NCBI GenBank assembly: GCA_964567755.1
Contig: CAZMNW010000020.1
Location: forward strand, 110,434-174,433
Source: an uncultured bacterium
GTDB taxonomy: Bacteria; Krumholzibacteriota; Krumholzibacteriia; G020349025
Length of the DNA stretch: 64,000 bases
Direction of reading: 5' to 3'
Shown here: one piece after another, positions 1,381 to 63,384 of the stretch
Position numbering within the stretch: position 1 is the stretch's first letter
Layout of the letters: each line of letters opens with the position of its first letter
Made by a program: the position numbers and the translations under genes
The notes under the pieces: generated by a model
The model's input: only the letters and a program-made list of their open reading frames with translations
What the model was told of the DNA's origin: nothing
Databases searched by the model: none

Positions 1381-1396
1381 TGGCTCGTGTCTTGCG
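1381..1396 (+). promoter_or_regulatory. sigma-54 (-24/-12)-like promoter motif TGGCTCGTGTCTTGCG, followed by perfect palindrome GCGATG-caagt-CATCGC (1394-1410)
   Basis: GG and GC elements at the canonical 10-nt spacing (consensus TGGCAC-N5-TTGCW), about 55 bp upstream of the start of the GcvH-like/FeS/NrfD operon. A sigma-54 activator is encoded in the window. Confidence 0.3.
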
Positions 1397-1449
1397 ATGC
1401 AAGTCATCGCGGCGGTTCTTGAATCCGCCGCGGACAATCACCCGAGGAG

Positions 1450-2127
1450 GTGAGTCTTGTGACAGCGATTCTGGTCTTCTGCACCATCGCACTGTTCTTG
1501 ATCGTGGATTCGGTGCGAACACACAGACGCGGCGCGGTCGTGGCGCCGTACGTCCCGCTGCGACTCGAACCGGTGGGGGGCGATTTCCCCGTTCCGGCGG
1601 GGATCTTCGTCGGCGCCGGTCACACCTGGGCGAGGCTCGAAACCGACGGCTCGATCAAGGTCGGCGTGGACGATTTCGCCTCGCGTCTGTTGGGTCGGCT
1701 CGACCGCCTCGAGGTCGCCGCAGCGGGCGCCGAGCTCGCGCACGAGGATGCCGCCTTCGTGCTGCATCAAGGGACCAAGAGTGTCGCGTTCGCGTCGCCG
1801 CTCACCGGCACGGTGACCGACGTGAACACCACGCTCTTGCACGAACCGGAACGCCTGCGCGACGCACCCTACGACGCCGGCTGGCTGCTGCGCATCCGGC
1901 CGCACCATCTAGCGCGCGAGCTCCGGCGTCTGCGCATCGGGGACGAAGCAGAGCGATGGCTGCGGCATGAAGCTGCGCGTCTCGGCGATTTCCTCGGTCG
2001 CACACTCCCGAGCGCACCCGTCGGTGCGACGCTCCAAGACGGTGGCCTTGCCGTGACTGGAGTGATGGAGACGCTCGACGCCAACGCGTGGGAGCGTTTC
2101 GAATCCGAATTCCTTGCCGGTCGCTGA
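1450..2127 (+). CDS. membrane-anchored glycine-cleavage-H-like (lipoyl-domain) protein
   Basis: GTG start after GAGGAGG; N-terminal hydrophobic helix SLVTAILVFCTIALFLIV; core GHTWARLETDGSIKVGVDDFA...LHQGTKSVAFASPLTGTVTDVN aligns with the GcvH fold, including a Lys at the lipoyl-lysine position (TKSV vs ESVKA). Confidence 0.65.
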   Translation: MSLVTAILVFCTIALFLIVDSVRTHRRGAVVAPYVPLRLEPVGGDFPVPAGIFVGAGHTWARLETDGSIKVGVDDFASRLLGRLDRLEVAAAGAELAHEDAAFVLHQGTKSVAFASPLTGTVTDVNTTLLHEPERLRDAPYDAGWLLRIRPHHLARELRRLRIGDEAERWLRHEAARLGDFLGRTLPSAPVGATLQDGGLAVTGVMETLDANAWERFESEFLAGR

Positions 2128-2199
2128 GGTTGCAGCGACCGTGCGGTGCATAGGACACCTGCTGCGTGCAAGCGGTCGAATCAGAGGAGGAGGGCGACG

Positions 2200-2985
2200 A
2201 TGACTGCGGCGCTGCTCATCGACACCACGCGCTGCATCGGATGCAACGCTTGTGCGGATGCCTGCAAGGAAGCCAATCATCTGCCGGGGGAGGTGGAAGC
2301 CACGCTCACTGCCCGCACCTGGACGGTGGTCGAGGAGAGGGGGGACGTGTACGTCCGGCGGATGTGCATGCATTGCGAGGAGCCGTCTTGCGCTTCGGTG
2401 TGTCCAGTCGGGGCGTTGCACAAGACTCCCGAGGGACCGGTGGCGTACGAAGAGTCACGCTGCATCGGCTGCCGCTACTGCATGGTGGCCTGTCCCTTCG
2501 GCGTCCCGAAGTACGAATGGGACAAGGCGCTGCCGCGGGTGCAGAAGTGCATTGGCTGCATCGGCCGCGTGCGCGCCGGCCAGAGCACGGCGTGTGCCGC
2601 CGCCTGCCCGGCAGAGGCCACGACGTTCGGTGAGCGCGAGGAACTGCTGGCGGAAGCGCGCCGGCGGATTCGCGAGAATCCCGATTCCTATGTGCACCGC
2701 ATCTATGGGGAACGCGAAGTCGGTGGCACGAACGTGCTGGTGTTGGCGGCGGTTCCCTTCGAGCAGCTCGGGTTCCCGGCCGACCTGCCCGAGAGAGCGA
2801 TGCCGTCCTACACCTGGGAAGCACTGTCGAAGATCCCGAACGTCGTCTCGGTGGGAGGCGTCGGCTTGCTGGGGATCTGGTGGATCATCCGCCGCCGTAT
2901 GCAGCTCGAGCGCTTGGAAGACGTCGACGTCGATACCGGGTCGCTCCTGGAACGGGCCACGAGTCGAGACGGAGGCCGGTCATGA
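2200..2985 (+). CDS. 4Fe-4S ferredoxin-type iron-sulfur subunit (NrfC/PsrB/HybA/DsrO-like) with C-terminal membrane anchor
   Basis: RBS GGAGG then ATG at 2200; four Cys clusters (CIGCNACADAC, CMHCEEPSCASVCP, CIGCRYCMVACP, CIGCIGRVRAGQSTACAAACP); C-terminal hydrophobic helix VVSVGGVGLLGIWWII; no Tat/Sec signal seen. Stop overlaps the next start (ATGA). Confidence 0.85.
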   Translation: MTAALLIDTTRCIGCNACADACKEANHLPGEVEATLTARTWTVVEERGDVYVRRMCMHCEEPSCASVCPVGALHKTPEGPVAYEESRCIGCRYCMVACPFGVPKYEWDKALPRVQKCIGCIGRVRAGQSTACAAACPAEATTFGEREELLAEARRRIRENPDSYVHRIYGEREVGGTNVLVLAAVPFEQLGFPADLPERAMPSYTWEALSKIPNVVSVGGVGLLGIWWIIRRRMQLERLEDVDVDTGSLLERATSRDGGRS

Positions 2986-4172
2986 AGCCACGTATCGCTT
3001 TCCCGCGCATCACGTTCTGGAGGGGTGTGTTCGGGCTCATCGTCGCTGCCGGCCTGGTGGCGACCTGGGTGCGTTTCACCCGGGGATTGGGGGCGAGCAC
3101 GAATCTCTCCGACCAATTTCCGTGGGGACTGTGGATCGGTTTCGATGTGCTCTGTGGCGTCGGGCTGGCGGCGGGAGGCTTCGCCGTCACCGCGATGGTG
3201 CACATCTTCCACATCGAACGCTACAAGCCGATCCTGCGGCCGACGATTCTGACCGCCTTCCTCGGCTACTTGCTGGTGATCGTGGCGCTGCTCTTCGACC
3301 TCGGGCGGCCGTACCGGATCTGGCATCCGCTGGTCATGCGGAACCCGCACTCGGTAATGTTCGAGGTCGCCTGGTGCGTGATGCTCTACACCACGGTGCT
3401 GGCACTCGAGTTCAGCCCCATCGTGTTCGAGAAGCTGCGCATGCAGCGGCCCCGGCGCGTCCTGCACGCCATTTCCGTGCCGCTCGTGATCGTGGGGGTG
3501 TTGCTCTCGACGTTGCACCAATCCTCACTCGGGTCGCTGTTCTTGATCATGCCGCAGAAGTTGCACCCGCTGTGGTACACGCCGATGCTGCCGGTGTTCT
3601 TCTTCATCTCCGCGCTCGGCGTCGGCTTCGCCATGGTCATCTTCGAGTCCTATTTGAGTGGGAAGGCCTTTGGCAAACAGCTCGAGCTGTCGTTGCTCTC
3701 CGATCTGGCACGCGTCGTCGTCGTGGTGCAACTCGTCGCCCTGGTGTGGCGGCTCGAGGACCTGGCGTTCCGTGGCGCCTGGGAGCACCTCTGGGCCACG
3801 ACGTTGCCGGCCGCCGCGTTCGCCGCCGAGATGATCGTGGGTGCCATCGTTCCCATCGTGCTCTTCGCCGTGCCGCGCTGGCGCCAGAATCCGCACACCT
3901 TGTTCCTGGGCTCGGCGTGCGTCGTCTCGGGTTTCGTGCTCAATCGGCTGAACGTCGGCATCACCGGACTCGAGCTGGGCACCGGGCAACGTTACTTCCC
4001 GAGCTGGATGGAAGTCGCGGTCACCATGAGCATCGTGGCGATCGGTTTCGCGCTGTTCGGCGTCGCCTGCAGGACCTTACCGATCTTCGAATCGCCCAAG
4101 GCGCAGATCCGGCGGTTGCGTCGCGGCCGGCTGGCCACGACGCCAGCGCAACCGGCTTCAGCGCAGGCATGA
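2982..4172 (+). CDS. NrfD/PsrC-family polytopic membrane subunit (quinone-interacting)
   Basis: MKPRIAFPRITFWRGVFGLIVAAGLVATWVRF...; 8-10 predicted TM helices over about 397 aa; translationally coupled to the preceding Fe-S gene. Confidence 0.85.
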   Translation: MKPRIAFPRITFWRGVFGLIVAAGLVATWVRFTRGLGASTNLSDQFPWGLWIGFDVLCGVGLAAGGFAVTAMVHIFHIERYKPILRPTILTAFLGYLLVIVALLFDLGRPYRIWHPLVMRNPHSVMFEVAWCVMLYTTVLALEFSPIVFEKLRMQRPRRVLHAISVPLVIVGVLLSTLHQSSLGSLFLIMPQKLHPLWYTPMLPVFFFISALGVGFAMVIFESYLSGKAFGKQLELSLLSDLARVVVVVQLVALVWRLEDLAFRGAWEHLWATTLPAAAFAAEMIVGAIVPIVLFAVPRWRQNPHTLFLGSACVVSGFVLNRLNVGITGLELGTGQRYFPSWMEVAVTMSIVAIGFALFGVACRTLPIFESPKAQIRRLRRGRLATTPAQPASAQA

Positions 4173-4212
4173 GGGTCGAGTCACAGGGTCGCAAGGACCC
4201 TCGGGAGGAGCC

Positions 4213-5067
4213 ATGGATGCAATCGGGCGCAGAGAAGCAGGAATGCAGCGCGCGCGCGTCGTTCCCGAAGGCGAGGCGCCCTGCATCTGGATGTTGGCGG
4301 GTGTCTTGAGCTGTTGGATCTGCGATCTGCAGCTGGACTGTGAGCGCTGCCCTCTGGATGCGGCACTCCGACACGAGACGCGGCGTTTGCTGAAGCCGCC
4401 GGTGGATGCGGTGCTGGACCGCGCAGCCAACGCGCGGCCAGCCTCCGAGTCCGCGGCGCCGGAGAATCCGAGTCGAGAGCAAGGCGTGCATGATCTCGAG
4501 ATGCGAGATCTCCCCGCGCTCGACCCGGACGCCCTCTACTCGCGCGGCCACCTTTGGGTGCGATTCGAGGCCGATGGCAGGGCGCGCGTCGGCCTCGATG
4601 CATTCGCCGCCCGAATCGTCGGGCGGCTGCGTTGTGTTGTGCTGCCACTCGTCGGCTCACGCCTGCAGCGGGGGCGGCCTTGCACTTGGCTGGACCAACC
4701 CGGGGGAACCTTGACGTTGCTGGCACCAATCACGGGTCAGGTGTTGGAATGCAACGAGAAATTGGCTTGCGGCACTGATTTCGAGCTGCACGATTCGATG
4801 GCAGACGCGTGGCTGTTCGTGCTGCAACCTCACCGTCCACGCAAGGAGTCGGCAGCCCTGCTGCACGCCGAGACCTTTTCCGCCATGGTGCAAAGAGATG
4901 TCGAATCATGGCACCAGGCTCTGGTCCAAGCGCTCGACGTCGTGACTATGTCCGGGGGTGAAACGATGGCGGACGGGGGAGTGCCCGTGCACAGCACCAT
5001 CGAGCTCCTCGGATCGCGCGGGATGCATCGACTGGCAGCTCGATATCTGCATCCGTCTCGCGCTTGA
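4213..5067 (+). CDS. GcvH-like protein 2, Cys-rich N-terminus, lipoyl-lysine position not conserved
   Basis: RBS GGGAGGAG then ATG; YSRGHLWVRFEADGRARVGLDAFAARIVG matches the GcvH N-terminal beta-strands; the lipoyl position reads GGTLTLLAPITGQVLECN (no Lys); N-terminal CWICDLQLDCERCP. Confidence 0.55.
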   Translation: MDAIGRREAGMQRARVVPEGEAPCIWMLAGVLSCWICDLQLDCERCPLDAALRHETRRLLKPPVDAVLDRAANARPASESAAPENPSREQGVHDLEMRDLPALDPDALYSRGHLWVRFEADGRARVGLDAFAARIVGRLRCVVLPLVGSRLQRGRPCTWLDQPGGTLTLLAPITGQVLECNEKLACGTDFELHDSMADAWLFVLQPHRPRKESAALLHAETFSAMVQRDVESWHQALVQALDVVTMSGGETMADGGVPVHSTIELLGSRGMHRLAARYLHPSRA

Positions 5068-5215
5068 AGCGGCACGGCAACCTCTGGGACAAGGCGTGCG
5101 GCGAGCAAGGACAAAAGAGTCCAGCGATCGCCTGACTGACGACACCTTGCCGTAGTGAATCTAGACGGTTACATACAAAACAGGAAGACTCGATCGCCAA
5201 CCGCGGAGATGCGGC

Positions 5216-6967
5216 ATGGATGCGGACAAGCGCGATGCCAGCCAGCCGGACAGCAAGACAGGAGGAGCTGAGGCCGAGGCGGCCGGGGGCCTGTCTCCCG
5301 CTTCACAGCGGCGCTCGAGATTCTTCCATCACCTGAGTATTCGTCTCTTTTTACTCTTGTTTGGCTCCATCGTGGTGCTCTTGGCGCTCTTCACCGGGCT
5401 TGTGGTGCGTGAGCATCGCCGGCACCTCATGGCCACGGTGAGTCTGAGCGCTGGCCGCGCCAGCGACATCATCCGGCACACGACACGTGCCAGCATGCTG
5501 CGCAGCCAACGCACCGAGCTGCACGAGATCATGCAGAATCTCGGCACCCAGCCAGGGATCGACCTCGTGCGCGTCTACAACAAGCAGGGTGTCATCATGT
5601 TCTCCACCCGCGCCGACGAGCTGCGGCACCAAGTCGACCTGCAAGCCGAAGCCTGCCACCGTTGCCACGCGCAGGAATCGCCCCGTCAGGTTCTTGCGGG
5701 TGGCGATGCCGCGCGCATTTTCGCCAACGGTGACCACCGCGTCTTGGGTTGGATCAGTGCCATCCCCAACGCACCCGATTGCTTCACGGCTCCCTGTCAT
5801 GCTCATCCGCGCGAACAAACTGTTCTCGGTGTGCTCGACGTTTGGATGTCGCTCGACACACTGGATGCGCAGATGCAGGCGAGCAGCCGCCACATGAGTC
5901 TGATGGCGGTGGCGGTGGCCGCGATGGTCGCCCTGGCTTTTGCCTGGCTCATCTTGCATCTGGTGCAACGGCCCGTGGAGCGTCTGATCGGGGCCACACG
6001 CGATGTCGCGGCCGGCAACTTGGAGCACACGATCGAGCACGGCGCAGACGACGATCTCGGCGACTTGGCGCAGTCGTTCAACACGATGACGCGACGGCTG
6101 CAGCATGCGCGTGCCGAGAACCGCCATTGGGCGCAGACGCTCGAGGAGCGCGTGGCCGAAAAGACGCGTGAGCTGCAGCGTGCGCATGCGCACCTGGGGC
6201 AGATGGACCGCATGGCGTCGCTCGGCAAGCTCTCGGCCACCGTCGCGCACGAAATCAACAATCCGTTGTCGGGGATCTTGGTGTCGGCGCGGTTGGTGGA
6301 GCGCACGCTGGAGGGTGGCGATTTTTCGCCACAAAGCCAGGAGTCCATGCACCGTTCGCTGCAAATGATCGGTTCCGAATCGCGCCGTTGCGGCGAGATC
6401 GCCCGCAACCTGCTGGCGTTCGCGCGCACTGCCGCGCCGCGGACAGAATCGGTGTCGCTAACGGCGTTGCTGGCGCGCTGCCTCGAGCTGGTGCGCCATC
6501 ATCTCGAATTGGCCAACATCACGGCGCGCCAGGAGCGAAGCGGCGAGGATGATTTCGCCGACTGCTCCGCGGGCGAGATCCAGCAAGCCGTCTTGGGATT
6601 GTTGGTGAACGCGGTCGAAGCCATGCCGAGCGGAGGCATGCTCACCTTGCACCTGCGTCTCGAACCGGACGTGATCCGGATCGCGGTGCAGGACACGGGT
6701 GTGGGGATCGCCGCCGAGATCCTGCCGCGCATTTTCGAGCCCTTCTTCACCACGAAATCGGACACGAGTGGGGTCGGACTGGGACTGGCGGTAGTCTACG
6801 GCATCATGCAACGCCATGGGGGCAAGGTGGAAGTGGAATCGAAGGTGGACGCCGGCAGCACATTCACCCTGGTGTGGCCGCGCCGCGCCGCGGGGCCGGA
6901 AGTGCCGGGCCCCGGCATGTGCGGCGACTCGCGTTTGACGGAGGCCCCCGAGGAGATGCGCTCATGA
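5216..6967 (+). CDS. sensor histidine kinase (two TM helices, periplasmic domain with CxxCH motif, HAMP, HisKA, HATPase)
   Basis: TM1 FLLLFGSIVVLLALFTGLVV; periplasmic segment with EACHRCH (CxxCH) and DCFTAPCH; TM2 LMAVAVAAMVALAFAWLILHL; HAMP; H-box ATVAHEINNPL; C-terminal G-boxes (DTGVGI, GVGLGLAVVYGIM). Confidence 0.85.
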   Translation: MDADKRDASQPDSKTGGAEAEAAGGLSPASQRRSRFFHHLSIRLFLLLFGSIVVLLALFTGLVVREHRRHLMATVSLSAGRASDIIRHTTRASMLRSQRTELHEIMQNLGTQPGIDLVRVYNKQGVIMFSTRADELRHQVDLQAEACHRCHAQESPRQVLAGGDAARIFANGDHRVLGWISAIPNAPDCFTAPCHAHPREQTVLGVLDVWMSLDTLDAQMQASSRHMSLMAVAVAAMVALAFAWLILHLVQRPVERLIGATRDVAAGNLEHTIEHGADDDLGDLAQSFNTMTRRLQHARAENRHWAQTLEERVAEKTRELQRAHAHLGQMDRMASLGKLSATVAHEINNPLSGILVSARLVERTLEGGDFSPQSQESMHRSLQMIGSESRRCGEIARNLLAFARTAAPRTESVSLTALLARCLELVRHHLELANITARQERSGEDDFADCSAGEIQQAVLGLLVNAVEAMPSGGMLTLHLRLEPDVIRIAVQDTGVGIAAEILPRIFEPFFTTKSDTSGVGLGLAVVYGIMQRHGGKVEVESKVDAGSTFTLVWPRRAAGPEVPGPGMCGDSRLTEAPEEMRS

Positions 6968-8316
6968 ACCGAGCATGCGGCAAGATTCTGGTCGTGGACG
7001 ACGAGAACGCTGTGCGCGAGTCGTTGCACGAGTGGTTCGTCAAGGACGGGCACGAGGTTGCGATCGCGGCCAACGCCAAGGAAGCGCTGCAGCGGCTGCA
7101 AGAACACCCCGGAACGTGGGATGTCGTGCTGCTCGACATTAAAATGCCGGGGATGGACGGCATGGAGCTGCAGCGGCGGATTCATGCCCTCGATGCCAGC
7201 ATCGTCGTCGTCATGATCACGGCGTACGCAGCGGTCGACACGGCGGTCGCGGCGCTCAAGTCGGGTGCCTACGACTACGTTACCAAGCCCTTCGACCCCG
7301 ATCACTTGAGTGCGCTCATTCGCAAAGCTCTCCAGCATCGGCAGCTGCAACGCGAGAATGTGCGCCTGCGCGACCAGATCACCGAGCAAGAGCGCGGCGA
7401 CGAAATCATCGGCCAGAGCAAACAGATGCAAGAGACCTTCGAGCTGGTACGCGTCGTGGCCCCGACCGATTCCACGGTCATCATTCGCGGTGAAAGCGGC
7501 ACGGGCAAAGAGCTCATCGCGCGCGCCATTCACGCCCACAGCCGCAGGCGTTACTTCCCGCTGATTCCCGTCAACTGCGGCGCGTTGGCCGAGGGCATCC
7601 TGGAAAGCGAGCTCTTCGGCCACGAACGCGGCGCCTTCACCGGCGCGCACTACCGCCGCAAAGGCAAGCTCGAGATGGCCGATGGCGGCACATTGTTCCT
7701 CGATGAAATCGGCAACATCGCCATGAAGACGCAGATGGACCTGTTGCGCGTGCTCGAGACCAAGCAGTTCACGCGGCTCGGCGGCAACGAGGTCGTGAGC
7801 GTCGACTTTCGCGTCATCTGCGCCACGAACCGCAGCCTGGAACAGGCGCTGCAGACTGGCGAGTTCCTCGAAGAGCTCTATTATCGGATCAATGTGTTCG
7901 CCATCCATTTGGCGCCGCTGCGCGAGCGCAAGAGCGATGTCCCCGCGCTGGTGGAGCACTTCGTGCGCAAATTCAGCTTGGCCATGGGCAAACGTGTCGA
8001 AGGCTTGATGCCCGAGGCGTTGGACCGGCTCATGCACCATACGTGGCCGGGCAACGTGCGCGAGTTGGAGAATGCCGTCGAGCGCGCCATGGTGGTCGGC
8101 CGGCCGCCGCTGTTGCGGCTCGAAGATTTCTCGCTGCACTTCGACAATGGCTTGCACCCGGCGGAAGGCGACTCGCTCGAGGAGGTGGAGCTCGCCCACA
8201 TCCGTCACGTGTTGGAACAGCAGAACTGGAACATCACGCGCACGGCCGACGTTCTTGGCATCAATCGCGTCACCCTGTACAACAAAATCAAGAAGTTCGG
8301 TCTGCGGAAGGAATGA
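6964..8316 (+). CDS. sigma-54-dependent response regulator (NtrC family: REC + AAA+ + HTH)
   Basis: REC domain KILVVDDE...DVVLLDIKMPGMDG; AAA+ Walker A GESGTGKE; GAFTGA motif; ELFGHERGAFTGA; C-terminal HTH NITRTADVLGINRVTLYNKIKKFGL. Start overlaps the kinase stop (ATGA). Confidence 0.9.
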   Translation: MNRACGKILVVDDENAVRESLHEWFVKDGHEVAIAANAKEALQRLQEHPGTWDVVLLDIKMPGMDGMELQRRIHALDASIVVVMITAYAAVDTAVAALKSGAYDYVTKPFDPDHLSALIRKALQHRQLQRENVRLRDQITEQERGDEIIGQSKQMQETFELVRVVAPTDSTVIIRGESGTGKELIARAIHAHSRRRYFPLIPVNCGALAEGILESELFGHERGAFTGAHYRRKGKLEMADGGTLFLDEIGNIAMKTQMDLLRVLETKQFTRLGGNEVVSVDFRVICATNRSLEQALQTGEFLEELYYRINVFAIHLAPLRERKSDVPALVEHFVRKFSLAMGKRVEGLMPEALDRLMHHTWPGNVRELENAVERAMVVGRPPLLRLEDFSLHFDNGLHPAEGDSLEEVELAHIRHVLEQQNWNITRTADVLGINRVTLYNKIKKFGLRKE

Positions 8317-8317
8317 G

Positions 8318-8857
8318 ATGCAGGAGATCTGGATCCTGCCGCTCCCCGGGGCCGAGAGCGTCGAAATTGCGCGTGTCGCCTTGGAGGTCGAAGAGCAGCT
8401 GCATCGGCCGGTCGTGGTCGGCGAGGCGCGGCAGAGCGTCGATGCAGCTTACGATCCGATGCGCGACCAGTTCAATTCGCGGATTCTGCTGCAGTGGCTA
8501 GTGGAGGTGCGCCCCCGCCAGGCCGAGCGCGTTCTCGGCATCACCGGGCTCGATCTCTTCATCCCCGTCCTCACCTTCGTCTTTGGTGAGGCGCAGCTCG
8601 GCGGTTGCGCGGCCGTGGTGTCCTGGTCGCGTTTGGACAATCGTTACTACGGCTTGGGCGCGGATGCGAGCCTGCGACACGATCGCCTGGTGAAGGAAGC
8701 GATTCACGAGCTCGGTCATACTTATGGCCTGTTGCATTGTTTGGACACGCAATGTGTCATGCGCCGTTCGACCTATGTCGAGCAGATCGATCTCAAGCTG
8801 CGCCGGTTCTGCATGTCCTGCGCGCGGGCGATGCAGGTCGGGGCCACGGACAGCTGA
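8318..8857 (+). CDS. archaemetzincin-like zinc peptidase
   Basis: HELGHTYGLLHCLDTQCVMRRSTY...CMSCARA = HExxHxxGxxxC...C...CxxC zinc/cysteine pattern typical of archaemetzincins; ATG 2 bp after the regulator stop. Confidence 0.75.
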   Translation: MQEIWILPLPGAESVEIARVALEVEEQLHRPVVVGEARQSVDAAYDPMRDQFNSRILLQWLVEVRPRQAERVLGITGLDLFIPVLTFVFGEAQLGGCAAVVSWSRLDNRYYGLGADASLRHDRLVKEAIHELGHTYGLLHCLDTQCVMRRSTYVEQIDLKLRRFCMSCARAMQVGATDS

Positions 8858-9219
8858 TCCAGGCTCAAGGACCGAAATCGATGCTGCAACTCGCGGTGTT
8901 CGGCATCGCTTTCTGGTGAGTCGGCGCGCTGCCGCGGATCCAATCCACCGTCCAGAACCTCCAACTGCAGCGTGCTGCGGCGATCCCGAATATGATTGGC
9001 GAGCAGATTGCGCGCGGTTCGGAACACGTATGCGCGCGCTTTGTCGGGCTCCCGGAGCAGCGGCGCCTGCGCCACGAAACGCGTCAGCGTTTCCTGACAC
9101 AGATCCTCGGCCGCGTCGGCGTCGCGCAGCCGCCGGCGCAACCACGCCAACAACTCGGGGCGCAGGCGCTCGAGCCATACGGCGTCGTACGCGAATCTCG
9201 GGTCGTGCTCCTTGTCCAT
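8773..9219 (-). CDS. sigma-70 region-2-only ECF-like protein (possibly truncated or degenerate sigma factor)
   Basis: MDKEHDPRFAYDAVWLERLRPELLAWLRRRL...CQETLTRFVAQAP...AYVFRTARNLLANHIRDRR resembles ECF region 2; no recognisable region 4 in any frame downstream; 85-bp convergent overlap with the archaemetzincin gene end. Confidence 0.4.
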   Translation of the reverse strand: MDKEHDPRFAYDAVWLERLRPELLAWLRRRLRDADAAEDLCQETLTRFVAQAPLLREPDKARAYVFRTARNLLANHIRDRRSTLQLEVLDGGLDPRQRADSPESDAEHRELQHRFRSLSLDQLSVAPTCIARAQDMQNRRSLRSICST

Positions 9220-9283
9220 GGCCTCCGGATCCGTCCCGGAACGTCCCCGCTCCAGTTCTGAAGACACGCGAGCGAGTGAAAGG

Positions 9284-11128
9284 TTACGGAGACCGTCCCG
9301 GTGTCGGTGCCTGGAGCACGTGAGACAGACTGTCGGCAGCCGCTGACCGCCCGGTCGTTCGGTACAGGCTTCCCAGTGCACCCAAGGTCGCCGCGAGATC
9401 TGGGTGCAGGATGTCCAGCTGCTGCCGCTGAATGGCGAGCGCCTCGGCGAGCGCGGCTTCCCCATCCGCATATCGCCCCAGATCGATGAGAATCGTTCCG
9501 AGGTCGGTCAGGCTGGCTGCGACTTCAGGGCTCTGGTCGCCGAAAGTCGCACGCTGCGCATCCACCCCCATCTCGTACATGGCCCGTGCGCGATCGAGGA
9601 CACCGATCTCGCGATAACCGCGCCCGAGAGCCTGATACAGACGTCCCCCCAACTCGGGTGAGTCGATCGCCGTCCGAACGCGCTCGGCACGTTCGTCCAA
9701 GACCTGTCGAGTGAGAGTCGGGTTCTCGCGCTCGTGCTCCGAATCGGAGCCGGCAAGAATCTCGAGCACGAGGGCGCTCGCGCTGCGGGCCTTCTCAAGC
9801 GCGACCAGGGCCTCATCACGCTCTTGTCGTGCACTTCCGGCTTGCCTCGCCGTCCCGACCAGCCCGGCGCCGAAGACGAAGACGACGATCGCGACGGCGG
9901 TGATGGCCGCGCGACGGCGAGAACTCGTGCTCCCGAGGCGGTCGATGAAATTCTGCCGCCTCGGCCCCACAAGCTGGCCCGCCTGGGAACGTTCGAGATC
10001 CTCGAGTAGCGTTTGCACGGAGGGGTAGCGGTCGGCGGGATTCTTTCCCAGCGCCTTGAGCGCGATATGGTCGAGGTCTCGCACCAACTGCTTACGCCAG
10101 CCACGCTGGCGCGCAGGCGTCTCCGCTCGCGCGAGCGCCATGCTCGGGGCCACGGCTTGCGCATGAATGACCGCCCGGGAGACCTCTCCCGGCGCCGAAG
10201 CGCGCGGGCCATGCGGCCATTGGCCAGTCAACAGTTCGTAGAGTACGACCCCGAGAGAGAAGACGTCCGTGGCCGTCGTGACCGGCTCGCCGAGGATCTG
10301 TTCGGGAGCGGCGTAGTCGAGGGTGAGTCGCGGTCGAGACGAAACCGACGTTGCATGCTCGGGGTCCAGGAGCTTGGCGATGCCGAAGTCGAGGAGCTTC
10401 ACCTCTCCGTGATTGGACACGAAGATGTTGCTTGGTTTCAGATCCCGATGCACGATCAGGTTCTGGTGCGCGTACGCCACGGCACGGCAGGCCTGTTGGA
10501 ACAGGCGCAGTACGGAAGCTAGGTCCTCGCTGCGCCGCACGCAGTAGTCGGTGATCGGCTCGCCCTCCACGTACTCCATGGCGAAGTAAGGCAGACCATC
10601 CTCGGTGGTGCCTCCGTCCACGAGTCGAGCAATGTGCGGGTGATCGAGTCGAGCCACGATGCGGCGTTCCAGGACGAAGCGCGGCAAGACTTCGTCGGGG
10701 TCGAGGCTCCCCTTCATCAATTTGATCGCCACGCGTTGTTCGAACTCGCCGTCGGCGCGCTCTGCCAAGTACACCACGGCCATGCCGCCGCGACCGATCT
10801 CGCGCACGATGCGCCAGGGGCCAATCCGGTGTCCTGGCCCCACGGGTTCTGGATCGCGGCCGCCGCGTCGCGGCTCTCGTGCGCTCGTCAACGCTTCGGG
10901 AACGAGCTCCAGCGCCGGGCGCGCGAGGAAGTCCTCGGCGCGTTTGTCGGCGGCAAGCAGCTGCTTGACACGATCGCGCAGGTCCTGGTCTGTGCCACAG
11001 GCACGATCCAGGCAGCCCTCGAGCTCCGACGCCGGAAGTTCGAGAGCCTCGTCGAGCACTTGGGCGATGCGCTGCCAGCGTGCCGAGTCGACGGCGCTGA
11101 GCTCCGCTCTGAAGCGCGGAGGTCTCAT
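9284..11128 (-). CDS. Ser/Thr protein kinase with transmembrane segment and C-terminal TPR-like repeats
   Basis: Kinase subdomains: GRGGMAVVYLAE, VAIK, HRDLKPSNIF, DFGIA, APE; TM AAITAVAIVVFVFGAGLV; TPR-like C-terminus. Confidence 0.85.
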   Translation of the reverse strand: MRPPRFRAELSAVDSARWQRIAQVLDEALELPASELEGCLDRACGTDQDLRDRVKQLLAADKRAEDFLARPALELVPEALTSAREPRRGGRDPEPVGPGHRIGPWRIVREIGRGGMAVVYLAERADGEFEQRVAIKLMKGSLDPDEVLPRFVLERRIVARLDHPHIARLVDGGTTEDGLPYFAMEYVEGEPITDYCVRRSEDLASVLRLFQQACRAVAYAHQNLIVHRDLKPSNIFVSNHGEVKLLDFGIAKLLDPEHATSVSSRPRLTLDYAAPEQILGEPVTTATDVFSLGVVLYELLTGQWPHGPRASAPGEVSRAVIHAQAVAPSMALARAETPARQRGWRKQLVRDLDHIALKALGKNPADRYPSVQTLLEDLERSQAGQLVGPRRQNFIDRLGSTSSRRRAAITAVAIVVFVFGAGLVGTARQAGSARQERDEALVALEKARSASALVLEILAGSDSEHERENPTLTRQVLDERAERVRTAIDSPELGGRLYQALGRGYREIGVLDRARAMYEMGVDAQRATFGDQSPEVAASLTDLGTILIDLGRYADGEAALAEALAIQRQQLDILHPDLAATLGALGSLYRTTGRSAAADSLSHVLQAPTPGRSP

Positions 11129-11694
11129 AGTTCCTCGGTTGCGCTCAGGCTCTCGTAGAGAAGGGCGCGGGCTTTGCGCCAGTCGCGTTTCACCGTGCGT
11201 GGGGCGACATCCATGACGTCCGCGGTCTCCTCCACCGAGAGGCCGGCGAAGAAACGCAGCTCGACCACACGCGCGAGCCTCTCGTCCAACATGTACAAAC
11301 GGGCGAGCGCTTGGTCGAGGGCCAAAATTTCTTCGAGTCGGTCTTCGGAAGCCAACTGCACATCGTCGAGCGCGACGCGTGTGAGGTTCCCACCGCGTTT
11401 GTGTGCCAGGCGGCGGCGGGCGTAGTCCACCACGATCTGACGCATGGCGATGGCCACGACCGAGAAAAAGTGCCGGCGGTCGTTGAAGTCGAGCCGGCTC
11501 TGATCGAAGAGCCGGAGGAAGGCCTCGTGCACGAGAACGGTGGGACTGAGGGTTTGGGCGGAGGTGCCGACGTACAGCTTGGCGCGCGCCATGGCATGAA
11601 GCTCATCGTAGACCAGCGGCAACAGCTCGCCGAGCGCCTCGCGGCGCCCGTTGCGCAGGTCCACGAGCAGTGTCGTGATTCCGTTGTCCGGCAT
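11125..11694 (-). CDS. ECF-type RNA polymerase sigma factor (SigK/ECF-STK-associated type)
   Basis: Region 2 (LVYDELHAMARAKL...VHEAFLRLF) and region 4 (ELRFFAGLSVEETADVMDVAPRTVKRDWRKAR); 4-bp overlap with the downstream kinase gene. Confidence 0.85.
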   Translation of the reverse strand: MPDNGITTLLVDLRNGRREALGELLPLVYDELHAMARAKLYVGTSAQTLSPTVLVHEAFLRLFDQSRLDFNDRRHFFSVVAIAMRQIVVDYARRRLAHKRGGNLTRVALDDVQLASEDRLEEILALDQALARLYMLDERLARVVELRFFAGLSVEETADVMDVAPRTVKRDWRKARALLYESLSATEEL

Positions 11695-55204: not shown

Positions 55205-56623
55205 ATGCTGCGAGGTCTGGTCAACTTCATCGGGCGCGCCAGCGGAGATGCCCTCGGTCTGATCGCAATCACCCTCTTGGGTGTGACTGGGGTGACCTTC
55301 CTGGGGCTCATGGCTGTTCAGCTCACGAGCCGGGAGCTGTCGCCGTACCTCGGAATCGTCATGTATCTCGTGCTCCCGGCCGCATTCGCCACCGGGCTCG
55401 GGCTCCTCGGGCTGTCGCGCTGGCGCGTGCGGCGAGCGCAGAGGAGCGGCCGGCCGGTCCCGTGGCAGCTCGACCTGACGAACCCGGCGCATCGCGAGCG
55501 TCTCGGTGTCTTCGCCTTCGTCGCGCTGGCCAGCATCATCATCTTGGCGCTCAGCGCCTACCACGGCGTGCATTACATGGACTCGACCAGTTTTTGCGGC
55601 GAAGTGTGTCATGTGGTGATGGAACCCGAGTTCGCGGCGTATCAGAACTCGCCGCATGCACGCGTCAACTGCACGGACTGCCACATTGGGCCGGGCGCCA
55701 GCTGGTTCGTGAAGTCGAAGCTTTCCGGCTCGCGGCAACTCCTGGCGGTGGCGCTCAAGACCTACCCGCGTCCCGTGCCGGCTCCGATCGAGAATCTACG
55801 TCCGGCACGCGAAACGTGCGAGCAGTGCCACTGGCCCGCGAAGTTCCACGGCGATCGCATGAAGGTCCACCTGCGTTTCCAAGAAGACGAAGCCAATACG
55901 GCGCTCAAGACGGTTCTCCTGCTCAAGGTCGGTGGCGGCAGTCTCGAGTCGGGGTTTGCGGAAGGCATCCACTGGCACATGAACCTCGCCAATCGCATCG
56001 ACTACCGCGCCGACGAGAACCGCGAGAAGATCTACTGGATCAGGGTCGAGGACCGGGATGGCCACGTGCGCGAGTACTGGAAGGAGGATGGCCTCGAACG
56101 GCAGGCGATTCTGGCGCTGCCGGCGCGCCGGATGGATTGCATGGATTGCCACAACCGTCCCACGCACGAGTTCGACCGGCCGAGCGAAGCGCTGGACGAG
56201 GCGCTGCAGACCCGACAGATCGCTCCCGATCTGCCGTTCCTCAAGCGCGAGGGGCTCCGATTGTTGCAGTCACCGCACGCGACCAAGGCGGAGGGCGTGC
56301 AGAGCTTTGCGCCAGGGCTCGTCGACTATTACGCGCGCGAGTATCCAGAGCTCGCAGCGGCACGACGAATCGACATCGAGGCTGCCGCCGCCGTGCTGCA
56401 GTCGATCTACGCGCGCAACATCTTCCCGGCGATGAACGTGACCTGGGGTACGTACCCGAATCACATCGGACACCAGGACGACGGCGGCTGTTTCCGCTGC
56501 CATGACGAAGGACATACGACCGATGACGGGCAGACGATCAGCCAAGATTGCTCGACCTGTCACGTGCTCCTGGCTCACGAGGAGGCGGATCCAGAGGTGC
56601 TGCGGGTCCTGCGTGGCGAATAG
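55205..56623 (+). CDS. inner-membrane multiheme c-type cytochrome, NapC/NirT-superfamily, ImcH-like
   Basis: Three N-terminal TM helices, then CGEVCH...CTDCHIG (NapC/NirT-like spacing) plus CEQCH, CMDCH, CFRCH, CSTCH (six CxxCH). Confidence 0.8.
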   Translation: MLRGLVNFIGRASGDALGLIAITLLGVTGVTFLGLMAVQLTSRELSPYLGIVMYLVLPAAFATGLGLLGLSRWRVRRAQRSGRPVPWQLDLTNPAHRERLGVFAFVALASIIILALSAYHGVHYMDSTSFCGEVCHVVMEPEFAAYQNSPHARVNCTDCHIGPGASWFVKSKLSGSRQLLAVALKTYPRPVPAPIENLRPARETCEQCHWPAKFHGDRMKVHLRFQEDEANTALKTVLLLKVGGGSLESGFAEGIHWHMNLANRIDYRADENREKIYWIRVEDRDGHVREYWKEDGLERQAILALPARRMDCMDCHNRPTHEFDRPSEALDEALQTRQIAPDLPFLKREGLRLLQSPHATKAEGVQSFAPGLVDYYAREYPELAAARRIDIEAAAAVLQSIYARNIFPAMNVTWGTYPNHIGHQDDGGCFRCHDEGHTTDDGQTISQDCSTCHVLLAHEEADPEVLRVLRGE

Positions 56624-56700
56624 GGTCTGAACACTCGTGCTGTGCGAGCCTGTCGCATGACCGAGTTGTCAGCCGGAATCGCGAGGAAGGAGATCAGCGA

Positions 56701-58731
56701 ATGCGAGCCTGCCTCGTCACCCTGATCTCGATGTTGTGCATGGGCGTGCTGACCGCGAGCGGTTCACTGCGGGCGCAGGAGGCGCCTGTGACCAACGCTT
56801 GTCTCGAGTGTCATGGTACGGACGGCGTGCGCGATGCGACGCAGCCGCTCGACGGGATGAGCGTATTCCGGGGAGACTGGGAAGCCAGCGTCCATGCTGG
56901 GTTGGAATGCACGGATTGCCACACCAGTCTGCAAGCGCTGCCGCATGATGTGCCGTTGCCGCGCGCCGAGTGCTCTGCCTGCCATCCGGATGAAACACGA
57001 GCTTACGCGCAAAGCACGCACGGGCGGCTCTGGGCCGCGGGTGACAGCCTGGCGCCTTCCTGTGCCCAGTGTCACGACCCGCACGCGGTGCGCCCCTCCG
57101 ACGATCCTACGAGCGTCTTGCATCGCACCCATTTGGCCGCTGTTTGCATCGTCTGCCATGGAGATGCCAACGGGGTGGGTGCGCGTCCGACCGCCGTACC
57201 CCGACCGGCCCAAACGTACGCTCGCGGCGCGCATGCGCAAGCGATGGCTGCGGGCAACCAAAAGGCAGCGACATGCAAGGATTGTCACGATAGCCATGCG
57301 GTTCTCGGCGCCAGCGATCCGGCATCGCCGATCTACTACAGCAATGTTCCGCACACCTGCGGGCGTTGCCACGTGCAGGAATTCGAGGCTTACCACACCA
57401 GCGTGCACAGCGCCGGTGCCGAACAGGGAGCGACGGGATCACCCGTGTGCAACACCTGCCATGGCGAGCATGCGGTGGTGGATTTGGGCGAGGCCGGGCA
57501 GTCCGCCGTCGTCGCCAGCGAGACCTGCGAGAGCTGCCACCAAAGCCCGGCCTTGGCACGGCGCTACGATTTGCCGGCGGGAGCGGTGGCTTCGTACGAG
57601 GACAGCTACCATGGACGCGCGGCGCGCGGGGGGCTGGCGCGGGCTGCGGGTTGCACCAGCTGCCATGGAGTGCACCGAATCCTGGCGGCCGCGGATTCCG
57701 CCTCGTCCATTCATCCGGCAAACCTGACGGTCACGTGCCGCCGCTGCCACGAACAGGCGAGCGCGGAATTCGCCACTTCCTACGCCCATGCGCCGCGCGC
57801 CGCGTCGGCGGCCGACCGCGGCACGGCGACCGTACGCAACATCTATGGATGGCTCATCGGGATCGTCATTGGCGGAATGTTGCTGCACAATCTGGTGCTC
57901 TTCGCACACGACATGCGCCGGCGCTGGGCGCATCATCGCGCGCACGCGACGCACGTGCGGCTCGTAGGCAGCGAGCTGCGGCAACACGCGGTGCTCCTCG
58001 TCACCTTTTCGGTCTTGGTGTTCACCGGTTTCGCCTTGAAGTACGACCACACCTTCTGGGCCCGCTGGCTCGAGGCGATCGGCATGACCGAGGAGGTGCG
58101 GCGAATCGTGCACCGAGTCGCCGCGGTCGGCATGATCTTGGTGTCGATCGCGCACATGGTCTACCTGTTCGGCCGGCGCGGGCGCGAACAGCTCGGTCAC
58201 ATGACCCCGCGGATGCTCGACTTGCACGAGCTGGGGCAAAACCTGTCGTACCACTTGGGGCGGCGGTCGATGCCGCCTGCATTCTCCCGCTTCCGTTACA
58301 TCGAGAAGGCAGAGTACTGGGCACTGCTGTGGGGCACGATGGTCATGGTGGCGACGGGTCTCGTGCTCTGGTTTCCCGACCAGCTGCGGGGACCGAGTTG
58401 GCTGGTGCGCGTGGCCGAGGCGGTGCATCTCTACGAAGCCTGGCTCGCTTTCCTCGCCATCGTCGTCTGGCACTTCTTCTTCGTCATGCTGCGGCCGGGA
58501 ACCTTCCCGCTCTCCTTCACCGTCTTCACGGGCCGCATGGAACCGGAGGAGCTCGAGCACGAGCACCCCCAAGAGTTCCACGCGCTGGCACCGCGTCGCC
58601 TGCACCGGCCACCACCCGGGACACCGGAGCCGCCCGCATCGGCAGGCTCGGGCGCACCGATCGAGCCGGCCGGTGGCGACGAGACACCGCCGCTTCCGGG
58701 GGCGGACCACGAGCCGGGACCGCGATCGTGA
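56701..58731 (+). CDS. CbcL-like fusion: periplasmic multiheme cytochrome c (11 CxxCH) + C-terminal diheme cytochrome b-type membrane domain
   Basis: Signal MRACLVTLISMLCMGVLTASGSLRA; 11 CxxCH motifs; C-terminal 4-5 TM helices with conserved His (LHNLVLFAHDMRRRWAHH..., VAEAVHLYEAWLAFLAIVVWHFFF) as in HydC/FdnI-type b cytochromes. Confidence 0.85.
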   Translation: MRACLVTLISMLCMGVLTASGSLRAQEAPVTNACLECHGTDGVRDATQPLDGMSVFRGDWEASVHAGLECTDCHTSLQALPHDVPLPRAECSACHPDETRAYAQSTHGRLWAAGDSLAPSCAQCHDPHAVRPSDDPTSVLHRTHLAAVCIVCHGDANGVGARPTAVPRPAQTYARGAHAQAMAAGNQKAATCKDCHDSHAVLGASDPASPIYYSNVPHTCGRCHVQEFEAYHTSVHSAGAEQGATGSPVCNTCHGEHAVVDLGEAGQSAVVASETCESCHQSPALARRYDLPAGAVASYEDSYHGRAARGGLARAAGCTSCHGVHRILAAADSASSIHPANLTVTCRRCHEQASAEFATSYAHAPRAASAADRGTATVRNIYGWLIGIVIGGMLLHNLVLFAHDMRRRWAHHRAHATHVRLVGSELRQHAVLLVTFSVLVFTGFALKYDHTFWARWLEAIGMTEEVRRIVHRVAAVGMILVSIAHMVYLFGRRGREQLGHMTPRMLDLHELGQNLSYHLGRRSMPPAFSRFRYIEKAEYWALLWGTMVMVATGLVLWFPDQLRGPSWLVRVAEAVHLYEAWLAFLAIVVWHFFFVMLRPGTFPLSFTVFTGRMEPEELEHEHPQEFHALAPRRLHRPPPGTPEPPASAGSGAPIEPAGGDETPPLPGADHEPGPRS

Positions 58732-61602: not shown

Positions 61603-63384
61603 TCAGGCAGGCAGCTTGCGGATGCGAAGAGCGAGGCCGACGAGGACGACGAGCACGAACACGAGCGACAAGGCCAAGCCGCGCCGGCGGAGTTGCAGCT
61701 CGCGCACGCCCTTCTGTGCCGCCGCGAGTGCGGCGTTGGCGTGCGCGAGTCCTTCCTCGTGCTTGCTCGCGAGATTGGCGGCTGCATCGGTGCCGCCGAA
61801 CGCGTGCACGAGCACCTGCATCTCGATCTGAGAGTCCACGGCGCGATCGAGGGCGAGGAGCGCTTCACGCACCTCGACGCCGCCGCGCCGCGCGCGCAGC
61901 AACATGCGCTCGGCTCGGGCCGTCGCGCCGGTCACCTCCTGAACGCGCTGCAGGTGGTTGCGCGCTGTGTCGAGGCCGATGGCGCCGGCGGCGAGCTTCG
62001 GTTCGGCGGCATGGCAATCGCTGCAGCGCTTCACGCGGTCGGTGACGGTGCTGCCCGTGGCCGGATCGACGAAGCTGTAGTGGATCTTGCCAATGCGGAA
62101 CTTCTCGAACAGCCGGGCAAATTCGGGCCGCAGGGGGACCGACCCTGCTTCGTCGGACATCTGCGTGTGCGTGGGCAGCTCCAACGCACGGTCCACGAGC
62201 CAGTCGAAGAGATGCTCGTCGTCGAGGCCGCGGGCTTCCGGACGCTCCAGGAGCGCCGCCAAGGTCTCGGCATAGCGGGCGCGCGTGGCCTCGGGTTCCG
62301 GGACGATGTCGGACAACAAGGACTCGTGGCAGAAAGCGCAGGGTGTCGCGGGGAGGGGGGCGAGCAACGCCACGGTTGGTCGCACGATGGAGTGATTGCC
62401 ATGGCACGTCGCGCACTCCGAGAACGAACGGAGGTTCCGTTGCGCCGCCGGCTCGCTCGTGTCGTGGCAGGCGGCGCAGCCTTCGCGACCGGCGTCCTGC
62501 AGCAGGGCATTGTGCTCGACCAGCCCCGCATGTTTGGCGCTGGCCCGAAACAATCCCGCCTCGCGACCATGGCATTGGCCGCAGACGAATGAAACATCGT
62601 CGAGCCCGGGCGGTGCGGCGCCATGATTCCCATGACAGTCATTGCACGTCGGCGCCGACAAGTCCCCCTTCTGGTGCATGGCATGGGCGTGCACGCTCTG
62701 CTGCCAGCGAGCGTACTGATCGACCGGGAGTGGCGTGCCATCGGGCTTCGAGGACCCGCGCATGTGGTTGGCGTTGCCGTGGCAGCCATTGCAGGTCTCG
62801 GCGACGCGCTTGGGGTAGACGCGGGAATCCGGCTCGCTCGGCCGGCGGATGCCGTGCACACCATGACAATCGACGCAGGTCGCCACGCGCAAGTCTCCCT
62901 CGCGCAGCCGCCGTCCATGGTGGCTGGTGGCGTACTCTTGCTCCTGGTCCACGCGCGCATCGGGTTTGAAGCGCCTCATGAAGACGGGATCGGAGTGGCA
63001 ACGGCCGCAGAAGGCCGGCACGCCGGCCCGGCCCGGTGCCCCGCGGTACGGGTTGGCCGCGTACTGCGACTGCATTGATGCTTCCATGTCGGTCGCGAGC
63101 GCCGCATCGGGGTTGCCGCCGTGACAGTCGTGGCAAGAAAGTCCAACCTGCGCGTGGACATCGGCGGCGAAGGCCTCGACGATGTCGCGCACGGTGTTGG
63201 CGTCGAAGAGATCGGTGTTGCTGTGACACGCCACGCAAGAGGTGGCCGGGAGCCGGGTGGCTGGCGTCGCTGCGGGGTTCGCCGCAGCGGGCGGATTTTC
63301 CTGTGCAGACGCAAGCGAGACCCAGCACGCGCCGAGCGCGGCGAGGGTGACTCGCGACGTTCGTTTTCGGGTGGGGAATCGCAT
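61603..63384 (-). CDS. membrane-anchored multiheme c-type cytochrome (11 CxxCH, C-terminal TM helix), CbcA-like
   Basis: Signal VTLAALGACWVSLASAQE; CVACH, CHDCH, CGRCH, CVDCH, CNGCH, CNDCH, CGQCH, CAACH, CATCH, CAFCH, CSDCH; C-terminal LALSLVFVLVVLVGLAL. Confidence 0.85.
   Translation of the reverse strand: MRFPTRKRTSRVTLAALGACWVSLASAQENPPAAANPAATPATRLPATSCVACHSNTDLFDANTVRDIVEAFAADVHAQVGLSCHDCHGGNPDAALATDMEASMQSQYAANPYRGAPGRAGVPAFCGRCHSDPVFMRRFKPDARVDQEQEYATSHHGRRLREGDLRVATCVDCHGVHGIRRPSEPDSRVYPKRVAETCNGCHGNANHMRGSSKPDGTPLPVDQYARWQQSVHAHAMHQKGDLSAPTCNDCHGNHGAAPPGLDDVSFVCGQCHGREAGLFRASAKHAGLVEHNALLQDAGREGCAACHDTSEPAAQRNLRSFSECATCHGNHSIVRPTVALLAPLPATPCAFCHESLLSDIVPEPEATRARYAETLAALLERPEARGLDDEHLFDWLVDRALELPTHTQMSDEAGSVPLRPEFARLFEKFRIGKIHYSFVDPATGSTVTDRVKRCSDCHAAEPKLAAGAIGLDTARNHLQRVQEVTGATARAERMLLRARRGGVEVREALLALDRAVDSQIEMQVLVHAFGGTDAAANLASKHEEGLAHANAALAAAQKGVRELQLRRRGLALSLVFVLVVLVGLALRIRKLPA

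Follow-up and report, generated by a model that had tools for sequence, protein, structure and literature searches.

The window analysed here, a stretch of 64,000 nucleotides from contig CAZMNW010000020.1 (assembly GCA_964567755.1) of an uncultured bacterium of the Krumholzibacteriota, carries a gene for a sensor histidine kinase (5216-6967) whose sensor domain contains two Cys-His clusters of the kind that bind c-type haem. To our knowledge, covalent c-haem sensors are the only known bacterial route to a cofactor that reads redox state or gases outside the cytoplasm, and only mono-haem forms have been characterised so far, namely GSU0582/GSU0935, Tll0287 and the Pseudomonas sCache_haem domains. 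Here, we describe the kinase, the family to which it belongs and the genes that accompany it. Positions are those of the window, and all features lie on the forward (+) strand unless marked (-).

The kinase gene and its partner regulator

The kinase gene is an open reading frame that encodes 583 residues, starts with ATG and is preceded by GGAG 8 nt 5' of the start codon. A called protein identical to its product is found in two Logan contigs. With a Kyte-Doolittle 19-residue mean above 1.6 as criterion, exactly two hydrophobic segments exceed the threshold, at residues ~41-64 (transmembrane helix 1, TM1; 5336-5407) and ~228-250 (TM2; 5897-5965), and in the full-length AlphaFold2 model these form part of the unbroken helices 40-95 and 214-265, respectively. 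The downstream half comprises a HAMP domain (residues 246-296, 5951-6103; PF00672, E = 2.9e-12), a HisKA dimerisation and phospho-acceptor domain (residues 336-405, 6221-6430; PF00512, E = 5.7e-11, above the cut-off) and a HATPase_c catalytic domain (residues 454-556, 6575-6883; PF02518, E = 1e-24, above the cut-off). Because HAMP and then HisKA and HATPase_c come after TM2, the loop between the two helices is placed outside the cytoplasm; the positive-inside rule by itself is ambiguous at TM1, where Arg is found on either side. The phospho-acceptor His345 (6248-6250) belongs to the H-box HEINNPL, in which H345, E346, N348, N349 and P350 are invariant or nearly so across the kinase family. The N, G1, F and G2 boxes of HATPase_c are intact as well, and N465, D493, G495, G497, F507, G521 and G523 are conserved in the family. 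Judged by its domains and motifs, the protein is an intact class I (HisKA) membrane histidine kinase.

The next gene (6964-8316) encodes a sigma-54-dependent response regulator, which was assigned from Pfam and NCBIfam matches and consists of REC, AAA+ and HTH_8 domains, with the Walker A sequence GESGTGKE at residue 176 and GAFTGA at residue 223. Its start overlaps the kinase stop (ATGA), an arrangement by which the two genes are predicted to be translationally coupled, and all related loci that extend far enough have a regulator 3' of the kinase. An earlier note, made from the letters of this DNA, had described 5216-6967 as a sensor histidine kinase with two transmembrane helices lying directly upstream of a sigma-54 activator, and had located a CHRCH and a second Cys-His cluster, CFTAPCH, between the helices. 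Reading frame, Pfam and hydropathy agree with this description, the activator is the adjacent gene, and both clusters do lie between the helices, CFTAPCH being a CX4CH motif. The two-helix hydropathy together with the HAMP domain after TM2 likewise puts the CXXCH segment outside the cytoplasm.

Two conserved Cys-His clusters in the sensor domain

EACHRCH corresponds to residues 145-151 and contains the canonical CXXCH motif C147-H-R-C150-H151 (5654-5668), which we designate predicted haem site 1 on the basis of its invariance and which forms a short helix (148-151) in the models. CFTAPCH corresponds to residues 189-195 (5780-5800) and is the first part of C189-FTAP-C194-H195-A-H197 (5780-5806), where the CX4CH motif, predicted haem site 2 by alignment to PDB entries 3B42 and 3B47, is followed by His197. 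Met94 (codon 5495-5497) is the predicted distal, that is sixth, ligand of haem 2, as suggested by its invariance and by its alignment to Met60 of the Geobacter sensors discussed below.

Given the composition of the kinase (8 Cys, 24 His), the chance expectation is 0.004 per motif and ~8e-6 for the pair. Conservation in the family is a stronger argument for the motifs than this estimate. We counted it in the best 150 representatives plus the query (n = 151), where C147 and C150 are each present in 151/151 sequences and H151 in 150/151, while C189, C194 and H195 are found in 146/151, 148/151 and 146/151, respectively. The second cluster has the spacing CX4CH in 140 of the 150 representatives. 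M94 is invariant (151/151) and H197 occurs in 136/151; besides the two proximal His, these are the only strongly conserved His or Met residues of the sensor. All of the 120 best full-length relatives have both motifs, separated by 42-47 residues, and 119 of them have CH-x-H, with a His two residues past that of CX4CH. The closest homologue, P0001, with 42% pairwise identity, retains both motifs.

Fold and homology of the sensor domain

The AlphaFold2 model of residues 66-228 has a predicted local distance difference test score (pLDDT) of 85.4 and a predicted template-modelling score of 0.81. It starts with a long helix and a second helix, continues with two pairs of strands separated by an insertion, and closes with a short helix, one strand and the C-terminal helix. 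When compared with the PDB by Foldseek, the model retrieved the extracellular Cache domains of WalK (template-modelling score up to 0.76), KinD, DctB and CitA, and it also returned the sensor of GSU0935 (3B42, E = 1.4e-4). In addition, a profile of 35 sensors from the family was searched against all PDB sequences, and its top two matches were 3B42 (GSU0935, E = 1.5e-6) and 3B47 (GSU0582, E = 6.4e-5). The PDB search with the single sequence of the kinase gave no match, and the family profile was needed to reach these two entries. Model, Foldseek and family profile together point to a periplasmic single-Cache sensor with two haem-c motifs at residues 65-227 (5408-5896).

No significant Pfam match was found in residues 65-227 of the kinase. 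CHASE8 (E = 0.05) and sCache_3_2 (E = 0.13) matches were obtained and set aside as too weak for naming the sensor. PF21563 (Mcp40H-20_sensor) is matched by 26 of the 35 relatives at E<=0.01 and PF11845 by one of the 35 (E = 0.009). Against PF21563, whose gathering score is 27 bits, some relatives score 27-32 bits. Matches of relatives to NapB, c3 and c7 (E 7e-4 to 0.05, below the cut-offs) give a hint that the two-motif segment may resemble small multihaem cytochromes.

The alignment with the Geobacter structures assigns different origins to the two clusters. The family sequence '...PIeNEpeC-staa-CHah' aligns with 'PFPNEQRC--QSCHD' of 3B42 and 'NEVRC--QSCH' of 3B47, so that H195 corresponds to His144, and the invariant Met94 pairs with M26 in the 3B42 chain (Met60 in GSU0935). 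In the numbering of GSU0935/GSU0582, Met60 is the distal and His144 the proximal haem ligand (PMC8396549). CX4CH thus sits at the Geobacter haem site, because it aligns with 'RC--QSCH' of both structures. C147xxC150H151, for its part, falls in a beta2-beta3 connector that spans ~36 profile positions; the corresponding part of 3B42 is ~20 residues long and free of Cys. His197 is missing from the Geobacter single-haem sensors (which read 'CHD' and 'CHEQ') and accompanies the extra CXXCH. On this alignment, CX4CH would be the ancestral haem site, with a spacing two residues longer than the Geobacter CXXCH, and CHRCH a lineage-specific insertion. Since the canonical CXXCH lies in an extra insertion while CX4CH fills the Geobacter site, the sensor is most likely a two-haem variant of the Geobacter c-haem Cache lineage.

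Homology, fold and conservation therefore concur in supporting a covalent c-type haem in the periplasmic sensor, and the comparison with Geobacter haem sensors that had been suggested is justified by the family profile, which matches the GSU0935 and GSU0582 domains. The proposal of a haem-containing input stands in this respect, although two haems are probably present rather than one. However, taking the canonical CHRCH as the primary haem site was mistaken: the roles are reversed, and CFTAPCH is the cluster that aligns with the Geobacter CXXCH.

Extent of the family

The family was delimited by searching 1.84 billion representatives exhaustively with HMMER, using the query and P0001 as a pair. 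This search yielded 1,465 clusters (50% identity) at E<=1e-3, 811 at E<=1e-10 and at least 249 at E<=1e-30, and a full-length profile search returned 2,340 clusters (90% identity) at E<=1e-60. A word-indexed search with the sensor domain only found one relative, and with the 35-sequence sensor profile it gave short fragments alone. All members tested are histidine kinases, and the longer ones differ by added cytoplasmic PAS domains. Kinases with the two haem motifs are abundant in Acidobacteriota and occur in at least seven further phyla, and their architecture, regulator partner and gene surroundings are largely constant. In public records they go by generic names ('ATP-binding protein', 'HAMP domain-containing protein', 'NtrC family sensor kinase', 'Sensor protein ZraS').

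The adjacent gene cluster and its putative promoter

The genes upstream of the kinase start with one for a GcvH-like protein with an N-terminal transmembrane helix (1450-2127; PF01597, E = 1.3e-17), which is the first of the cluster. It is followed by genes for an HmcB/HybA-like 4Fe-4S protein (2200-2985; Fer4_11), a quinone-interacting membrane subunit of the NrfD family (HmcC/HybB-like; 2982-4172; PF03916; NF045714 with 351 bits, below the equivalog cut-off) and a second GcvH-like protein, with a Cys-rich N-terminus (4213-5067; PF01597, E = 1.2e-15). The 4Fe-4S protein has a C-terminal transmembrane helix and no signal peptide, and it aligns with HmcB positions 37-292, i.e. without the signal region. 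The start of the NrfD-like gene at 2982 was adopted from the gene call in the related locus L002. Assignment of the two GcvH-like neighbours as lipoylated GcvH was considered and rejected, the lipoyl-lysine being absent from both and its column not conserved in a comparison that included the E. coli sequence. Downstream, an archaemetzincin gene (peptidase M54; 8318-8857; NF033823, 152.9 bits, above the cut-off) begins 1 nt past the regulator stop, and after it we noted a terminator-like hairpin at 8893-8909, a consensus match of a type whose number is not above the shuffled expectation.

This cluster (1381-8909 in the window) recurs in contigs of Terriglobia, Eisenbacteria, Ignavibacteriaceae, Gemmatimonadota, Verrucomicrobiota, Thermodesulfobacteriota and Blastocatellia (loci L001, L004-L006, L008, L009, L011-L013, L015 and L016). 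It consists of two or three GcvH-like copies that lack the lipoyl-lysine, one of them membrane-anchored and another Cys-rich at its N-terminus, together with the Fe-S protein without a signal peptide, the NrfD-like subunit, the kinase, the sigma-54 regulator and archaemetzincin, and the last of these is kept downstream in L001, L004-L006, L008, L010, L011, L013, L015 and L016. The Blastocatellia clusters (L015 and L016) lack the third GcvH-like gene, and their NrfD-like subunit (L015 7400-8992; L016 7407-8984) carries a C-terminal tri-haem c7-like domain with three CXXCH motifs. This domain is a plausible electron partner for the sensor and would be the periplasmic haem face of the module. In L001, the contig of the closest relative, kinase and regulator are broken into several short open reading frames (5799-7426), most likely by assembly frameshifts rather than as pseudogenes, given that L006 from Terriglobia, which is near-identical, is intact. 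Our literature search found no description of the GcvH-like/NrfD cluster.

The first GcvH-like gene is preceded, at a distance of 69 nt, by a sigma-54-type -24/-12 element, TGGCTCGTGTCTTGCG (1381-1396). We compared the window with 10 fetched loci (11 sequences, two of which, L001 and L006, are near-identical). Ten of these sequences have an equivalent element ahead of the first cluster gene at a distance of 42-75 nt, and in the remaining one the distance is 177 nt; the background frequency per locus is 0.008-0.15. Three partly palindromic repeats (GCGCATGC-like, GCGC(N)CATGC-like) are found at 1233-1357, 25-150 nt upstream of this element; they are possible sites of the regulator as an enhancer-binding protein and are indistinguishable from the GC-rich background.

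A proposed sensing mechanism and its alternatives

Taken together, the data lead us to read the protein as a two-haem periplasmic redox sensor kinase acting through the sigma-54 activator, a reading to which we assign a probability of roughly 0.55. We infer how the haems are attached and axially ligated, that redox is the signal, in which direction the kinase responds and which genes are regulated. Haem 2 would be attached to C189 and C194, with H195 as proximal ligand and Met94 as an exchangeable sixth ligand. Haem 1 would be attached to C147 and C150 with H151 in the beta2-beta3 insertion; it would probably be bis-His ligated, with H197 as sixth ligand, and may serve as an electron entry or relay haem. 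His197 appears to be the best candidate for this position because, the proximal His and Met94 apart, no further His or Met is strongly conserved, and because it accompanies the extra CXXCH. The oxidation state of both haems would be set by periplasmic electron carriers. In GSU0582 and GSU0935, Met60 ligates the haem when it is reduced and leaves when it is oxidised or when nitric oxide (NO) or carbon monoxide (CO) binds (PMC8396549), and by analogy reduction would favour Met ligation (low spin) whereas oxidation would free the Met.

Such a ligand switch would shift the TM1-alpha1 helix relative to the C-helix-TM2 helix. In the full-length model, the first of these helices (40-95) runs without a break from TM1 to Met94 at its tip, and the second (214-265) from the C-helix through TM2 into HAMP; two continuous helices would therefore offer a direct mechanical path from the ligand switch to the transmitter. 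HAMP would turn the helix displacement into changed autophosphorylation at His345, and the phosphoryl group would then be passed to the translationally coupled sigma-54 activator, which would drive the adjacent cluster. The likeliest target is the sigma-54-type promoter at 1381-1396, ahead of the GcvH-like/Fe-S/NrfD genes, and that transcript may extend over kinase, regulator and archaemetzincin, which would lead to autoregulation.

Several observations weigh against this proposal, and some of them favour another input. The kinase itself matches neither PF21563 (even at E<=10) nor PF11845, so that its homology to the Geobacter sensors is transitive, via the family profile. Loci L007, L010 and L014 have no adjacent GcvH, Fe-S or NrfD genes. 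The sigma-54 pattern is not enriched window-wide (77 matches against 67 expected), and the argument for the promoter rests on conserved position because this count is not above chance. Moreover, ~10% of the representatives lack His197; bis-His ligation of haem 1 is thus not universal, and a five-coordinate haem 1 would favour gas binding. This leads to the main rival of redox sensing, in which NO or CO would switch the kinase by binding to a five-coordinate haem 1, or to haem 2 after displacement of the Met. GSU0582 and GSU0935 do bind NO and CO, displacing Met60 (PMC8396549), and the sCache_haem domains, related Cache sensors with one haem, show properties typical of NO sensors when they are fused to signalling modules (PMC12889525). 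However, the conserved neighbourhood is respiratory and not nitrosative: it holds a quinone-linked Fe-S/NrfD module instead of NO-detoxification or denitrification genes, and in Blastocatellia this module has a periplasmic tri-haem domain. A second, probably six-coordinate, haem would also be superfluous for gas sensing. Sequence alone does not settle between redox and gas, and we consider a gas sensor rather unlikely, if clearly ahead of the readings that follow.

The number of haems could also be smaller than two. CX4CH is an unusual motif, confidence in the models is lowest in the loop past CHRCH (pLDDT 55-64) and the characterised relatives bear a single haem, all of which would suit a sensor with one haem, most likely at the CX4CH site, and with the other Cys pair forming a disulfide or a structural or metal site. 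Against this, CX4CH sites bind haem in cytochrome c3 of Desulfovibrio, the full Cys...Cys-His signature is kept almost without exception at both clusters, and a disulfide has no need of a His right after the second Cys. GSU0599 and GSU0591 are, in addition, counted in the literature as having two haem motifs (CX2-4CH; PMC8396549). The clusters could even be devoid of haem and work as a thiol redox switch or as a Zn or Cu site, as the name 'Sensor protein ZraS' given to one relative would suggest, and the transmitter half does resemble ZraS and AtoS. This similarity is, however, restricted to residues ~311-559, and domains homologous to the sensor hold a covalent haem, proven by crystallography, at the aligned Cys-Cys-His. 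Because both signatures are invariant and haem is proven at the aligned site, we regard a single haem as unlikely and the absence of any haem as very unlikely. The two-haem redox sensor thus remains the reading that we prefer.

Other genes in the window

Four genes for multihaem c-type cytochromes, with 5-19 CXXCH motifs each, are located at 55.2-63.4 kb. They encode a NapC/NirT-like penta-haem protein (55205-56623), two CbcL-like proteins in which multihaem c7/c3 domains (11 and 19 CXXCH) are fused to a cytochrome b561 (Ni_hydr_CYTB; 56548-61517), and an 11-haem protein with weak similarity to MtrC/MtrF domains (61603-63384, -). The two CbcL-like long open reading frames overlap in different frames (57366-58731), which indicates either a mis-assigned start or a frameshift. 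The earlier statement that multihaem cytochrome genes occur within 50 kb of the kinase holds for the first gene and not for the others, the distances running from 48 to 56 kb. The group suggests an extracellular or periplasmic electron-transfer locus. Since multihaem cytochrome genes are found in the same window, the organism is predicted to mature c-type cytochromes, and it probably performs periplasmic or extracellular electron transfer.

Elsewhere, eight large same-strand genes (16276-42899, +) encode beta-propeller (DUF5122/Rax2) and FG-GAP repeat proteins of 640-1,680 residues. Most of these proteins end in a C-terminal FlgD_ig-like domain, and GC skew is strongly positive along the run. 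At 9284-11694 (-), a Ser/Thr protein kinase with tetratricopeptide repeats at its C-terminus adjoins an extracytoplasmic function (ECF) sigma factor; another sigma-70 region-2 protein is encoded at 8773-9471 (-).

Significance and comparison with known systems

The finding points to a very common and unannotated form of sensor with two haems. What is new here is the combination of two haems with CX4CH at the ancestral site, in a variant that had been noticed in passing and that is widespread and without annotation. The model is testable at two sites, Met94 and His197, and the conserved NrfD/Fe-S/GcvH-like/archaemetzincin cluster is flagged as the probable regulon. The sensor also offers a candidate answer to how sigma-54 regulators such as Geobacter BccR sense a falling redox potential. 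Beyond this, we tentatively suggest a wider picture, which as a whole we hold to be possible but doubtful. In it, the kinase would be the founding example of a cross-phylum 'two-haem Cache' family that reads periplasmic redox potential by direct haem-to-haem electron transfer and not through a bound ligand. Together with the regulator and archaemetzincin, it would switch an undescribed quinone-linked module of NrfD, signal-less Fe-S and non-lipoylated GcvH-like proteins, to which Blastocatellia add the tri-haem c7 domain on NrfD; the same type of sensor would be the missing kinase of the BccR-like regulators of low-potential respiration in Geobacter.

The transmitter and the regulator have counterparts in NtrB/NtrC, AtoS/AtoC and ZraS/ZraR, with which they share the HisKA and HATPase_c domains and the REC-AAA+-HTH_8 architecture, respectively. 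However, the scores are far under the equivalog cut-offs (191 against 646 for AtoS, 449 against 714 for AtoC), and the sensors are unrelated. The closest characterised sensors are those of GSU0935 and GSU0582 (3B42, 3B47; PF21563), which have in common with the kinase an extracytoplasmic Cache or 'PAS-like' domain between two transmembrane helices, a haem-binding Cys...Cys-His on a short helix before the last beta strand and a Met on the N-terminal helix. They have one haem at a CXXCH, whereas the kinase has CX4CH there, a second CXXCH in a beta2-beta3 connector longer by ~16 residues, and His197. Furthermore, GSU0935 and GSU0582 are chemoreceptors with a methyl-accepting chemotaxis protein (MCP) output, in contrast to the HAMP-HisKA-HATPase output of the kinase. 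The sCache_haem/DUF3365/Tll0287-like domains (PF11845; 5B82), which also occur in histidine kinases, share the Cache scaffold and an inserted short helix with a c-haem motif. Their single CXXCH is strictly conserved, whereas the homologous site is CX4CH in 140/150 representatives of the present family, and the His/Cys ligation of Tll0287 is unlike the ligands proposed here. Two-haem forms are not mentioned in the sCache_haem preprint (Deshpande et al. 2026, PMC12889525).

Forms with an additional motif have nevertheless been listed: GSU0599 (a two-component protein), GSU0591, Adeh_2011 and Adeh_3383 are described as PAS-like, homologous to GSU0582/GSU0935 and having an additional haem motif, CX2-4CH (PMC8396549, PMC3831638). 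The kinase fits the published description of GSU0599, Adeh_2011 and Adeh_3383. We know of no characterisation of GSU0599, GSU0591, Adeh_2011 or Adeh_3383. Judging from the order of the locus tags, GSU0599 presumably adjoins bccR (GSU0598), a sigma-54 regulator gene. The comparison then extends to the regulated module: in Geobacter, the regulator acts from a sigma-54 promoter on an adjacent quinone-linked inner-membrane redox module when the redox potential falls, and the system proposed for the window would work in a similar manner. BccR is needed for the induction of cbcBA at low potential in Geobacter sulfurreducens, and the kinase that feeds it is not discussed in that study (Joshi et al., bioRxiv 10.1101/2021.04.15.440034). 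The target of BccR is a b/c cytochrome, whereas the candidate target in the window is the NrfD/Fe-S/GcvH-like module. With this difference, the parallel between the kinase-regulator pair of the window and GSU0599-BccR is suggestive.

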